In this document: piece after piece, positions 654 through 14,556 of the stretch
Layout: each line of letters starts with the position of its first letter
How positions within the stretch are numbered: the first letter of the stretch is position 1
Source of the DNA: Candidatus Thorarchaeota archaeon
Lineage (GTDB): Archaea > Asgardarchaeota > Thorarchaeia > Thorarchaeales > Thorarchaeaceae
Length of the DNA stretch: 14,601 bases
Assembly (NCBI GenBank): GCA_048882045.1
Contig: JBHLRZ010000056.1
Span: 1-14,601, forward strand
Direction of reading: 5' to 3'
Program-made: the position numbers and the translations under genes
Notes under the pieces: model-generated
Database searches by the model: none
Seen by the model: the letters and a program-made list of their open reading frames with translations, nothing else
What the model was told of the DNA's origin: nothing

Positions 654-1471
654 TGATTGAGTCGAAGGAATCTGATTACAGAACAATTATTTTGTTCATG
701 GCGGTCAGTCTTGTCATCATCTTGGCATATATCTGGTTGTTCGAGATTGTTCAATCAATTGAAGCAGTCAGCGGAGGACTCATTCATCGCACATTGCTAT
801 TGAATGTGCCCCTATTGATTGGAGCCATTGTACTAGTTTTAGTTGTGTATGGAGGACTCCAAGCGAAGGACTTCGGGTTGGTTGGCAGGAAACTCCCACT
901 TGCGTTTGTTGCGTGTTTACTCACCTGGGTTTTTGTTCAGGTCATGGAAGGAGTTGCAAGTATCGTTGGCACAGGTTCCGCACAATTCAACCCAATATGG
1001 AGCACGGAAGCTACTGTATTGGTGGGCCTACTGATTGGAATGCTTTTTGGAACAGCTCTCTATGAGGAGGTGGGATTCAGAGGATTTCTTCTGGTTCAAT
1101 TCGACATGAAGATGACGGACGTTACTTCGAACAAGTATTTCCGAATCACATTAGCCCTGCTTTTCTCACAGGCACTCTTCACGCTGGTTCACATACCCTG
1201 GAAAGTCATGAATCAAGGATGGACAGTGTCTGTCTTCTTCGACCTGATCTTCAGTGTTTTCATGAATGGACTAATCTATGGTGTACTCTATCTGAGGACT
1301 GAAAACCTATTCTTTGTCATGGGAATTCATGCCTTAGGAAACGCACCAACTTCCTTGTTTATCTCCTCAATCGGAGAATCGAACTTGATCCTGCTAATGG
1401 CAATTATATGGGCGGTTGTTTGGCCCAAACTGAGGAAATGGGAGAAAGAAGACACAGTACCTGACAATTAG
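653..1471 (+). CDS. CPBP (CAAX/Abi) family intramembrane metalloprotease
   Basis: Canonical motifs EEVGFRG, FTLVH and HALGN; polytopic membrane protein; translationally coupled to the upstream gene. Confidence 0.92.
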   Translation: MIESKESDYRTIILFMAVSLVIILAYIWLFEIVQSIEAVSGGLIHRTLLLNVPLLIGAIVLVLVVYGGLQAKDFGLVGRKLPLAFVACLLTWVFVQVMEGVASIVGTGSAQFNPIWSTEATVLVGLLIGMLFGTALYEEVGFRGFLLVQFDMKMTDVTSNKYFRITLALLFSQALFTLVHIPWKVMNQGWTVSVFFDLIFSVFMNGLIYGVLYLRTENLFFVMGIHALGNAPTSLFISSIGESNLILLMAIIWAVVWPKLRKWEKEDTVPDN

Positions 1472-1585
1472 TCTGAAAGAGGAATTGAAAAACCCTAGAT
1501 TGCGAAGCAAAGTGTCTACAGTCAGTGTGTCCCACAACAGCTTGTATCCAGAGGAAGTTTGTTATGGACTTCGATGGAAAATAGC

Positions 1586-1610
1586 CGAGAAATTTATAAC
1601 GGCGTTATAA
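1586..1610 (+). promoter_or_regulatory. BRE/TATA promoter of the DUF998 gene overlapped by a perfect palindrome (operator-like)
   Basis: CGAGAAA followed by TTTATAA; TTATAACG-G-CGTTATAA at 1594-1610. Confidence 0.6.
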
Positions 1611-1673
1611 TAATGGCTCCATTAATTTCATTCGTGGAAATTGGTTAATCAAAAGGGGAGAGATAATAGTATT

Positions 1674-2273
1674 ATGACTCTCGATAATGAAAAGGTAGCT
1701 GGGCTACTCTTATTCTTTGGAACACTACAGGGGATTTTCGTCGTACTAATATTGGCATTAGTTGAACCTGGATACAGCTTCTCTACTAATTTCATCAGTG
1801 ATTTAGGAGACCTAAGTGCCTCTAATGCCCTCATATTCAATCTTTCAACGATTATTTGGGGTCTTGGCATATTAATAGCAGGCTTCCTCCTATATCGCGC
1901 TTCAGCAACAGAATCAATATTCCCTAACAGGTTATTTGCAATCCTGATCGTACTCTGTGGCATTTGCACCATTGGGGTAGGACTTGCTCCAATAAATTCC
2001 TCTCCCAGTATCTATCCATTACCTTTACACGTTATTTTTGGAGACATCTTAGCTGGACTCAGAGTAATCGCGATGTTTGTTTCATTCAAGATTATGAACC
2101 CCCCCTTATCATACATCCAGATAATTCTGGGAGTAATGGCATTCGTGTTGACTTTCCTTTTTCTCACAGCCATTGATTTCGGTCTGGGAGTGGGTGGAAT
2201 TCAACGAGTGAGCAGAGTGGTCTTATATGCGTGGTTGTTTATCATATCCACACATCTCATGAACAAATCCTAG
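1674..2273 (+). CDS. DUF998 family membrane protein (cassette cargo)
   Basis: PGYSFSTNFISDLG, IFN, GVG, LH and GGIQR motifs; about 6 TM segments. ATG 1674 preferred over TTG 1641 because a purine-rich tract (AGGGGAGAG) precedes it. Confidence 0.8.
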   Translation: MTLDNEKVAGLLLFFGTLQGIFVVLILALVEPGYSFSTNFISDLGDLSASNALIFNLSTIIWGLGILIAGFLLYRASATESIFPNRLFAILIVLCGICTIGVGLAPINSSPSIYPLPLHVIFGDILAGLRVIAMFVSFKIMNPPLSYIQIILGVMAFVLTFLFLTAIDFGLGVGGIQRVSRVVLYAWLFIISTHLMNKS

Positions 2274-2320
2274 AGTCAAGATACACAGATACAGAATTAG
2301 AAGAATCAAACAAACGGAAC

Positions 2321-2368
2321 GAGGGAATAAGGGAAATTCCTGAGAAGGGAATTTCCTATCCTCTTTTT
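2321..2368 (+). terminator. Hairpin plus T-tract after DUF998
   Basis: GGAAATTCC (2332-2340) pairs with GGAATTTCC (2348-2356), extendable with bulges to GAGG/CCTC, followed by TTTTT. Confidence 0.6.
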
Positions 2369-2431
2369 AAGGTCTAAACTCAAAACACATTTTAATATTT
2401 GAATAAGTCCGCGACTACATAAAACTAGTAA

Positions 2432-2610
2432 TTGTCATGGGAGTTCATGCTCTCGGAAATGCACCTACATCTCTGTTTGTTTCATCAATTGGTCCTTCAA
2501 CCCTAATCCTACTATTGGCACTCATTTGGGCGGCTTTGTGGTCCAAACTACGAAGGTGGGAGGAGAGAAGTGTAGTACTTCGTAACTCAGCAATTGGCTC
2601 TGGAAGTTAA
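2432..2610 (+). pseudogene. Orphan (displaced) 3' end of a CPBP protease allele
   Basis: Translates VMGVHALGNAPTSLFVSSIGPSTLILLLALIWAALWSKLRRWEE...*; 33 of 43 aa identical to the end of 653-1471. Clear homology starts at TTGTCATGG (matching 1314-1322). Confidence 0.93.
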
Positions 2611-12647: not shown

Positions 12648-12759
12648 TCTTCAAATCATCTCCATACCAATATGTAAATCGAACATACTGGTAATACTAT
12701 GGATGTCCAACTAGAATAACTGATTTCTCCCTCAATCTGAGTTCGTTATGACATAACAA

Positions 12760-12843
12760 TTTTGAAAAAAGAGGCTTTATGAGGCTCTATTTCAAAAAGA
12801 TTATATAAAAGATATAGTCGAAAAATTGCTTTTCCGACTCTAT
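12760..12843 (-). promoter_or_regulatory. TATA box flanked by two imperfect inverted repeats
   Basis: TTTTATATAA (minus strand, 12801-12810); TTTTGAAA...TTTCAAAA (12760-12797); ATATAGTCGAAAAA-TTGC-TTTTCCGACTCTAT (12812-12843, 12 of 14 pairs). Confidence 0.55.
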
Positions 12844-12891
12844 TAGGGCCCAATACCACATAGAATGTGATGTTTCAGGCGCAATTGTTAG

Positions 12892-14412
12892 CTATTCATC
12901 CGGGACGAGTTGCAGTATACTACCTGGTTGTCCATAAGCCCAAGAGTGTATCAGAAGAATCTCCCCCTTTACATCATGCACGTGCATAGACGATTCAATC
13001 AGACTTCGTAAATCTGGTGACAAGTAGGTCGGATGAGAGGAGAAGATCATACCATAGTTCATGTCCATGTTGGTCTGGAGCCAGAACCACATAAGATTAG
13101 GGATGACCTCGCCTAGGAAAGGAATAGTCTTACCACTCTGGTCATCAAAGAGTATGGCGAAGAACTCCCTATCCTTGCCTGCTATACCATAGTGAGTATA
13201 TTGATTTCGGACCATATGCTTTCGAAGGACATTCCTAATCCCCGATTCAACCTCCTCCTTAGGAACACCATACCCCTTCGTGAACCACCTATGGATCTCT
13301 TGCTTCTTTCCAGGATGGTGTGATGTTTCCATTCCTGTAAGGAGGGCAATGAAGAGGAGGTCACGTCTTGTTGGAGGTGTCTTGTTATCGGGAAGAAGAT
13401 GGTCGCCAGTCTTGAGAAGAGCGTAGATGTCCTCCAATGTTTTGACGGAATAGCGTGAGGGGTTCATTTTCCAGGTATCATCTCTTTGGTCATACCGCTC
13501 AATGTTCGTGTTCCATGCCTCAAATTCAAGGAACTTACCAGTAGCATCTTTTCGAAACACATCGTTCATTGTTACGAAATAGTCCTCACTATCAAGATAT
13601 GATGTGCACGATGATTGAAATGATGGCATGACTGCACTCGATGCCTTGCTCTTCTTCAGCACCTTTACTGTACCTGTGTTCTTGGACACGATACGATATC
13701 GATGCTCAACCCAGGAAGATCGAATGATGTCCATCAGATGTGACACCTTGGCACGAGAAAGTCCAGTCCACTTCATGGCACGGGCCTCCGTCATACCTCT
13801 CCCGTCTTGGAGGGCAAGCATCTCACTCACTATCCTGTGAATGTGTTTGTTGGTCAGATTGTTGGGAATGTGTATAGTGCTGTTCATGAAAATTCGGACA
13901 ACCCAGTTCTCATCCCATGTGAGTGCAAGCTGGTGCAACTTCTGTGGTCTGAGGACGAACTCGACAAGATCAAGTTCAGGAGCTCTAAAGAACCTACGGA
14001 TGTAATAGATGTAGCCAAGTAAGAAGATCAGAGCGTTGGCCTTGGGACCACCATAGTCCCAGTTCCGATAGAAGTCATCAACATAGTGTTTGAAATCATA
14101 CCCCTTGTCTTTTAGAACCTCAAACAACGCAGCTTGCCCCAATAGTCCGGGTGGCCTATCTCTTGGGAGTTGGGAGATGTCTATACGTCCAGCAATCTCC
14201 TTCTGTTTAGCAGGAAGTAAGCCTAGGATGTAGTCCACGTTGAATCTTGAGGGTATCAGTTCACCAATCTGTTTCTTTGACATCTTGCTCGGATGTACAA
14301 GTGTGCGGGATTCATCAGTATTCATCCGTCTGCTCAATATGTTCCAAGCCGGAAAGATGTGCTTGTCCTTGAAGTCATCCTTGATTCTCTGGATATAGTC
14401 CACCCTAACCAC
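12892..14412 (-). CDS. Hypothetical soluble protein with two HTH-like segments, possible transcription regulator (cassette 2 cargo)
   Basis: Long ORF with MTEARAMKWTGLSRAKVSHLMDII and FTKGYGVPKEEVESGIRNVLRKHMV. GTG 14412 follows AGGAGTG; the alternative ATG 14451 abuts repeat 3. Confidence 0.7.
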   Translation of the reverse strand: MVRVDYIQRIKDDFKDKHIFPAWNILSRRMNTDESRTLVHPSKMSKKQIGELIPSRFNVDYILGLLPAKQKEIAGRIDISQLPRDRPPGLLGQAALFEVLKDKGYDFKHYVDDFYRNWDYGGPKANALIFLLGYIYYIRRFFRAPELDLVEFVLRPQKLHQLALTWDENWVVRIFMNSTIHIPNNLTNKHIHRIVSEMLALQDGRGMTEARAMKWTGLSRAKVSHLMDIIRSSWVEHRYRIVSKNTGTVKVLKKSKASSAVMPSFQSSCTSYLDSEDYFVTMNDVFRKDATGKFLEFEAWNTNIERYDQRDDTWKMNPSRYSVKTLEDIYALLKTGDHLLPDNKTPPTRRDLLFIALLTGMETSHHPGKKQEIHRWFTKGYGVPKEEVESGIRNVLRKHMVRNQYTHYGIAGKDREFFAILFDDQSGKTIPFLGEVIPNLMWFWLQTNMDMNYGMIFSSHPTYLSPDLRSLIESSMHVHDVKGEILLIHSWAYGQPGSILQLVPDE

Positions 14413-14451
14413 AACCACTCCTTCTTCACACTCTGCTTGAACAAAAATCAT

Positions 14452-14516
14452 TCGTCATGGCACGCGAGATATTCGGACCTGACTATCTGCCTTACAGATA
14501 AGAGAAACAGATGTAA
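14452..14516 (+). repeat. ACAD-tail repeat copy 3 (displaced, decaying)
   Basis: 60 of 65 nt identical to copy 1; includes F>Y and a CAA>TAA nonsense change. Confidence 0.97.
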
Positions 14517-14523
14517 TAAGAGA

Positions 14524-14556
14524 ATGAAGAAGAGGAGCGTTACCTCCTCTCTTCAT
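14524..14556. terminator. GA/CT hairpin after repeat 3
   Basis: ATGAAG(A)AGAGGAG-CGTTAC-CTCCTCTCTTCAT. Confidence 0.7.

Follow-up and report, generated by a model that had tools for sequence, protein, structure and literature searches.

On the chromosome of a Thorarchaeota archaeon, cassettes are stacked behind ordinary genes by a swap of gene ends, in which a foreign end takes the place of the native one and the old end is pushed downstream. The window that we analysed is the whole of contig JBHLRZ010000056.1 (14,601 nt; contig C56) of a Candidatus Thorarchaeota genome (G000) of 3.6 Mb, a metagenome assembly that is 93% complete, and all negative results for this genome hold at that completeness. 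Two loci carry the argument: a CAAX protease gene whose tail has been replaced, and an acyl-CoA dehydrogenase (ACAD) gene followed by an array of cassettes, each bounded by a copy of the ACAD tail. The explanation we favour, with moderate confidence, is that homing-type cutting fixes the junctions and that homologous recombination shuffles the cassettes, which lack an endonuclease. A first-pass annotation, made from the letters of the window alone, had proposed cassettes inserted at a shared GTCAT core; its headline motif proves mostly wrong, whereas its cassette idea is right.

The CAAX locus comprises three features:

653..1471, + strand: chimeric CAAX/Rce1-like protease gene (Pfam PF02517), with a native head and a foreign tail from about 1316, where the donor switch lies
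1314..2431, + strand: inserted unit of 1,118 bp, consisting of the foreign CAAX tail and a DUF998 gene (1641-2273), as defined by an empty allele and a DUF998 match
2432..2610, + strand: stranded native CAAX tail

Here a foreign in-frame end has replaced the native end, which is displaced downstream. The copy at 2432-2570 is 73% identical to 1314-1452, and gene and copy have in common an 11-bp block containing GTCAT (1314-1324 and 2432-2442). Compared with G004, the closest relative, the head of the window's gene is 94% identical and its stranded tail 88%, as against 72% for the tail now in frame; with G103, which belongs to another genus, the in-frame tail is 97% identical and the head 74%. 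By informative sites, native sequence gives way to donor sequence in the interval from 9 bp before to 8 bp after position 1316. Beyond that switch the stranded copy is native, and the native tail now sits 1,118 bp downstream of the in-frame tail. An empty allele of a relative, found in two runs (X1 and X3), joins 1313 to 2432 at the 11-bp block and lacks the 1,118-bp unit. Because the donor switch flanks 1316 and the empty allele joins 1313 to 2432, the crossover coincides with the junction. Presence/absence variation bounded at the junction is thus found at CAAX, and with it the predicted kind of unit, one of 1-2.3 kb that has no mobility gene, brings a divergent allelic tail and displaces the native one. 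With these queries, no stranded CAAX tails were found in 85 relatives. CAAX tails of relatives are themselves mosaic (L148, L159), so tail exchange at CAAX has happened more than once.

The ACAD locus occupies the right-hand part of the window:

9945..11186, + strand: ACAD gene, anchor of the array, with its junction zone at about 11116-11126
11120..11230, + strand: in-frame ACAD tail (21 codons) with a terminator-like hairpin, the repeated unit
11226..12080, - strand: cassette 1 cargo, a membrane-anchored leucine-rich-repeat protein
12123..12235, + strand: stranded ACAD tail 1 with hairpin
12249..14451, - strand: cassette 2 cargo, a 132-aa membrane protein (12249-12647) and a 519-aa Lrp/AsnC-like regulator (12892-14451)
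14452..14560, + strand: stranded ACAD tail 2 with hairpin, beyond which the array goes on into contig C43 with at least nine more copies

All four stranded tails claimed for the window are present, and two of them belong to this one gene, whose protein is 80-96% identical to Thorarchaeota proteins. Relative to 11120-11188, the copy at 12123-12188 is 94% and that at 14452-14518 is 91-93% alike, and the blocks shared by gene and copy (12 and 13 bp) both contain GTCAT. Overlaps of 77 nt join the contigs in the order C31, C56, reverse of C43, giving at least 11 stranded ACAD tails on the joined scaffold, with two more on C44. Single ordinary genes lie between the tails, among them those for glutamine synthetase, a rhodanese, an S41 peptidase and an esterase, and the gene pair of cassette 2 has a paralogous pair further along the array. 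The Lrp/AsnC-like gene may be silent, or driven by sequence inside the ACAD tail: its start is 2 bp away from the junction, and the upstream region still present at its C43 paralogue is gone.

That such a layout is an artefact of assembly or of mixed strains seems to us scarcely credible. The source is a metagenome assembly with breaks at the repeats, and since independent assemblies stop 25-29 bases into the repeat at the ACAD copies, the order of the ACAD cassettes depends on the genome assembly. Yet the copies diverge by 6-27%, the units lie at even depth in four runs, the junctions at 2434 and 5255 are bridged in independent assemblies, and the layout recurs in 46 genomes, single-contig ones included. 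That cassettes are uncovered in run X6 was given no weight. Circle junctions read from joints that go back along the sequence were also set aside as evidence, for the sequence inside such joints is unknown and their source is other cassettes bounded by tails. No Rfam families were found in the window. Across the whole genome GATC is strongly depleted (0.60 of expectation) and CATG mildly so (0.79).

Across the family, at least two ACAD-tail matches occur in 46 of 81 genomes. The 5' edge of 225 ACAD copies is sharp: its median lies at -4 and its 5-95% range runs from -11 to +9, with a left edge near -8 and a trail to the right. The copies with flanking sequence (220 of the 225) represent 187 independent upstream families, 114 of which start with GTCAT; the word is common at ACAD junctions because it is the gene's own sequence there. 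Upstream matches at these junctions are contiguous runs and not arm-like, and the donor contexts of cassette ends are too divergent to define a core. Complete cassettes number 135, with a median of 1.3 kb, and hold 187 open reading frames (ORFs) in 136 clusters; cargo lies on both strands and is antisense in 112 of the 187.

The cassettes of the ACAD array are individually mobile, and their order is reshuffled and differs between genomes. Among pairs of copies, upstream cargo is common to 47 and downstream cargo to 117, and both to none; the glutamine synthetase cassette and the LVIVD cassette are found again in G004, tail to tail but in another order, at 92% and 89%. The integron-style array bounded by gene tails that had been suggested is therefore real, in that ACAD tails delimit an array that differs between genomes. 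Where cassettes are shared, crossovers lie at positions from before +8 to beyond +67, and some are past the terminator. Since they are spread over the repeat, shuffling looks like homologous recombination, while the creation of junctions is site-restricted. Three candidates for a more specific signal were rejected. A fixed crossover near +4 is contradicted by linkage among shared cassettes, a 12-6-12 inverted-arm site in the tail is not enriched relative to in-frame tails or a synonymous-codon null (p 0.34), and the windows at the junction, examined for a hairpin, fall at the 11th to 69th percentile of folding energy and show no more structure than other parts of the gene.

The claim of GTCAT at the breakpoints of three unrelated genes stands for ACAD and CAAX, where both partners carry the word, but not for the gene of 149 aa, in which the copy alone has GTCAT and the gene has CTCAT, leaving only TCAT in common. 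GTCAT has a density of 1.44 per kb on each strand in this genome. A genome-wide catalogue of stranded tails, built by nucleotide and protein comparison and with protein names assigned by sequence inspection, added ten other genes: AhcY, its convergent 412-aa neighbour, aldehyde oxidoreductase, NrdD, rpS19, NadA, a glyoxalase, a 496-aa enzyme, and DinB-like and CopA-like genes. At the start of their stranded tails GTCAT was found in none of the ten, so that a single core serving unrelated genes fails the genome-wide test with two cases of about 13 overall. Throughout the genus the 3' ends of rpS19, NrdD, AhcY and aldehyde oxidoreductase have stranded-tail arrays of their own, and the junction zone differs from one gene to the next. 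Among relatives the zone lies at -30 to -22 from the chosen anchor for rpS19 (mode of 35 copies), at -32 to -23 for NrdD (25 copies), and at -16 to -10 and -118 for AhcY (13 copies); the seven aldehyde oxidoreductase junctions are scattered over 170 bp (-188 to -16). These arrays lie at:

G000 C12:81055-85196, C14:12600-16120 and C18:34343-38742; loci L300-L319 and L400-L429: other stranded-tail arrays

That one recombinase, acting in trans, should work at a core of GTCAT (or CATGG) across many unrelated genes is in our view very improbable. GTCATGG, 7 bp long and present at 0.08 per kb, is common to the ACAD and CAAX junctions, a coincidence that we estimate at roughly 1% over a dozen events, and at AhcY, rpS19, the 412-aa gene and the 149-aa gene words resembling CATGG stand 0-25 bp away from the junction. 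CATGG, however, occurs in 4.6% of random 35-nt gene-end windows, and the out-of-sample excess that would make it a general motif is therefore marginal. The junction zones of AhcY, rpS19 and NrdD lie 10-30 bp from the word or are without it, the genome-wide test largely refutes this model, and there is no candidate enzyme.

Several side observations belong with this catalogue. At C1:191963 (within C1:190694-193275, L247) a back-to-back fusion with a 3-bp overlap joins the stranded tails of AhcY and of its convergent 412-aa neighbour; it looks like one foreign segment that was circularised and integrated once. C7:4991-5067 carries a stranded 5' head of a thiolase-like gene, with the intact gene 9.2 kb downstream. 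Small same-strand repeat families between single genes also occur at C24:13472-15808, C39, C1:252683-257270, C10:64500-76767, C18:26390-29857 and C20:60245-62983; one of them lies behind the end of a 23S rRNA.

A recombinase had been proposed as the engine, and searches of this genome and of 954 kb of array loci yielded none. The genome contains no match to tyrosine recombinases (PF00589, XerA NF040815, PF16795 and a profile of our own), serine recombinases (PF00239, PF07508), HUH transposases (PF01797, PF04986), IS110 (PF02371) or reverse transcriptase (PF00078), and the array loci contain no recombinase or transposase of the tested families. XerA-like recombinase was thus among the proteins not found in this genome. 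Tyrosine recombinases do occur in 30 of 86 family genomes, at other sites, and the remaining 56 have no PF00589 match. At L351:7764-9360 a 376-aa host gene is represented by a piece of 105 codons with a tyrosine integrase gene directly behind it, a possible integration into a protein gene.

Transient integrase elements could account for integrase-free cassettes if each target gene had its own family of tyrosine integrases and the elements excised aberrantly, at secondary sites, and were lost afterwards, as in tycheposon islands. Such elements are suggested by the preferred left edge of each hot spot, by tRNA-Val copies that begin at the anticodon loop, by the tyrosine recombinases at other sites in the family, by the coincidence of crossover and junction at CAAX, and by the existence of an archaeal integrase with homologous-recombination-like activity (PMC5495485). 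We nevertheless think this explanation distinctly unlikely. Besides their absence from the array loci, tyrosine recombinases are missing from all 135 complete cassettes and from the contigs with listed ACAD copies, where contig breaks could hide rare elements; no integrase lies beside ACAD, rpS19 or AhcY tails in 24 integrase loci; and the symmetric core is not enriched and the upstream similarity is run-like. On viral contigs neither ACAD nor rpS19 tails were found, nor any relative of the ATPase described below.

What does accompany the ACAD site, in relatives, is a nuclease-like gene. A PF14528 match in G035 proved to be a 606-aa ORF that fills the first cassette behind the in-frame ACAD tail; the 606-aa protein is encoded at L083:6355-8172 on the minus strand. 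In a set of about 400 loci its homologues all lie directly behind an ACAD tail, antisense to ACAD; they are whole in L011, L013, L023 and L045 and remnants elsewhere. Eight of 33 in-frame ACAD tails are followed by the nuclease ORF or a remnant, and among ten independently placed homologues eight abut an ACAD end, one does not, and in one case the contig stops. The protein has two LAGLIDADG motifs, with both catalytic aspartates invariant in 23 sequences, and its structure model (predicted local distance difference test, pLDDT, 91) matches the nucleases I-DmoI, PI-SceI and TliVMA with E of about 1e-6; motifs and fold together are those of a two-motif LAGLIDADG protein of the monomeric homing-endonuclease type. 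A HerA/FtsK-like ATPase of 780-870 aa usually lies upstream of the nuclease. In five loci a unit of 4.8-5.2 kb, and in L011 one of 2.1 kb, is closed by a stranded ACAD tail at the same junction position as in the window, so that the order foreign end, nuclease, stranded end is present at ACAD in L011, L430-L433 and L437.

The genome of the window has a homologue of the ATPase (E 1e-82), situated between two tRNA-Val 3' halves in the same orientation, and an ATPase remnant lies in an rpS19 array (L316). The tRNA-Val unit is a candidate tRNA-targeting homing element:

G000 C49:786-9801 (L048): tRNA-Val unit with the 1029-aa ATPase beside a 923-aa multi-helix-turn-helix protein, encoded at L048:833-3601, that ends in two HNH-like zinc motif pairs

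To link the replaced tails, the arrays, their reshuffling, the spread crossovers and the site-linked LAGLIDADG fold, we infer cleavage, action in trans, a repair route and a role for the ATPase. A selfish element made up of a replacement ACAD tail, the two-motif LAGLIDADG protein and usually the HerA/FtsK-like ATPase would home into the ACAD 3' end. The nuclease would cut ACAD a few bases upstream of codon 394. Donor DNA would template the extension of the left end, which would thereby acquire the foreign tail and the sequence that follows it. Once the left end had been rejoined to the right, the old tail would be stranded, and the junction would lie at the break or just past it. The sharp left edge of the ACAD junctions with its trail to the right, the run-like upstream matches and the donor switch at the CAAX junction count in favour of this model. 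The stranded tail could serve as the right-hand homology by which the element is copied into a cut allele, a step for which homing biology provides a basis (PMC3630166). If the template were instead any DNA following an ACAD-like tail, closed by microhomology of a few bases, the product would be a cassette without a nuclease; elements may also decay in place to such cassettes. Repeats of 65-110 bp, tail plus terminator, would then be enough for homologous recombination to add, remove and rearrange cassettes between species, and no dedicated enzyme would be needed. The CAAX unit would represent one break-and-copy event by a putative cutter. tRNA-Val, rpS19, NrdD and AhcY, with junction zones of their own, would probably have nucleases of their own, which would explain the lack of a common GTCAT core. 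We count as supported the earlier suggestion that the responsible enzyme would act on the window's units in trans. Homologous recombination together with, in relatives, a site-linked homing endonuclease, to which the evidence points, lies nearer to the alternative that the first-pass annotation had mentioned, homology-facilitated uptake with a sequence-specific end.

A wider version of this mechanism, which we put forward tentatively and regard as possible rather than probable, is that Thorarchaeota have a family of two-gene homing elements, in which a HerA-like ATPase works with an exchangeable site-specific nuclease, LAGLIDADG at ACAD and HNH-like at tRNA-Val, and that cutting in trans seeds and feeds integron-like, integrase-free gene-capture arrays at many gene ends. 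A selfish nuclease system would then have become the main way in which the lineage acquires accessory genes, and would produce chimeric core genes.

Several observations weigh against a homing origin. None of the window's three units has an endonuclease between its gene ends, no ACAD-type LAGLIDADG gene (PF14528, PF00961) was found in the 93%-complete genome, and no nuclease is linked to CAAX or to the 149-aa gene. As relatives do have a nuclease between the gene ends at the same ACAD site, the window's units are at most nuclease-free derivatives. At the presumed site (-4 to +14) nuclease-linked tails show 5.3 differences against 4.9 (p 0.53), which is no clear recoding, and significant extra divergence is confined to +45 to +59 (p 0.002); self-protection is at most conjectural. 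The HNH-like call on the 923-aa protein was made by eye, without Pfam confirmation. About 187 independent nuclease-free junctions would have to have formed through microhomology. Finally, the variable junctions of upstream promoter copies and aldehyde oxidoreductase tails imply that a non-specific route operates as well.

The middle part of the window probably illustrates that route:

5256..5339, + strand: stranded tail of the 149-aa gene, upstream of the gene, its start sharing TCAT only
5560..7161, - strand: 533-aa membrane protein, a 40% paralogue of 8079-9731, in a duplicated block of 149-aa-gene tail, membrane gene and promoter
7292..7318, + strand: copy of the ACAD promoter core, matching 9863-9889, of a kind that recurs upstream in relatives with variable ends
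7409..7858, + strand: 149-aa membrane protein gene, rare in the family
8079..9731, - strand: 550-aa membrane protein

The copy at 5256-5339 is 87% identical to 7782-7865 and lies 2.5 kb upstream of its gene, the wrong place for a displaced tail. No second head of the 149-aa gene was found in the genome, and no stranded 149-aa tails were found in 85 relatives with these queries. Reading it as a restored target, as had been done, is not supported, and it is best read as a remnant within the duplicated upstream block. Copies of the ACAD promoter and head form a mirror series upstream of ACAD, to which 7292-7318 belongs, and their ends vary; upstream arrays of the promoter plus first codons, with variable 3' ends, are present in L001, L006, L007, L009, L016 and L023.

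It is conceivable that no dedicated enzyme is involved anywhere: foreign fragments from related species would form circles, or be trapped by microhomology where random breaks occur, and homologous recombination would bring them in at the conserved ends of genes, with the LAGLIDADG element a passenger on an existing hot spot. The variable junctions at aldehyde oxidoreductase and among the ACAD promoter/head copies (-54 to +67), the back-to-back fusion of convergent tails at C1:191963 and the spread of crossovers over the repeat are what such a process would produce, and it is probably the true route for the 149-aa case and the upstream copies. As a general account we consider it unlikely. ACAD junctions fall within about 20 bp in some 187 independent cases, which argues against random breaks, since these would give broad tail lengths, and the nuclease family is almost never found away from ACAD ends.

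If cutting of the homing type does fix the junctions, an integrase-free route leads to integron-like arrays, in which an endonuclease makes gene-end repeats and homologous recombination uses them as cassette handles. Little is known of the ways in which Asgard archaea acquire accessory genes and reshuffle them, and tyrosine recombinases are absent from most genomes of this family. The model names one protein and a 20-bp zone that are open to direct test, and core genes are shown to acquire C-termini from other genera.

A literature search of incomplete coverage found no published description of such a system in archaea, and in the parts seen of papers on Asgard mobile elements (PMC8813620, PMC11529989) and archaeal integrons (PMC9668308) we found nothing comparable. 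The closest parallel for single units is provided by the mobile endonuclease ORFs (mORFs) of fungal mitochondria, described in atp6 of Allomyces macrogynus and in atp6, atp9, cox2 and nad3 of Glomus (PMC3630166). As in mORFs, the gene reads in frame into a foreign C-terminus, the native one persists downstream and, at CAAX, is closer to the sister species, and a free-standing LAGLIDADG gene lies between the ends, here at the ACAD site of relatives. Unlike mORFs, the system resides on an archaeal chromosome, its nuclease is 600-1,080 aa long, antisense to the host gene and accompanied by a HerA-like ATPase, and most units are nuclease-free with ordinary cargo, stack to ten or more and are reshuffled across genera. 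Additive flexible genomic islands and the tycheposon islands at tRNA 3' ends (PMC7771536; bioRxiv 10.1101/2020.12.28.424599) likewise have cassettes behind a conserved gene, a direct repeat of its 3' end per unit and exchange between genera; here, in contrast, protein genes are targets too, no integrase was found, crossovers are spread and the host gene becomes chimeric. With integrons and clusters of attC sites lacking integron integrases (CALINs), archaeal ones included (PMC9668308), the arrays share tandem, mostly single-gene units (median 1.3 kb) of changing order, bounded by related repeats. They differ in having no IntI tyrosine recombinase that we could find in cis or in the genome, repeats that consist of coding tails plus terminator without attC end motifs, cargo on both strands that is mostly antisense, and no single crossover point. 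The units of the window are accordingly neither mORFs, as they have no nuclease, nor integron cassettes, as they have neither IntI nor attC; the system is mORF-like at the level of the unit and integron-like or additive-island-like at the level of the array.

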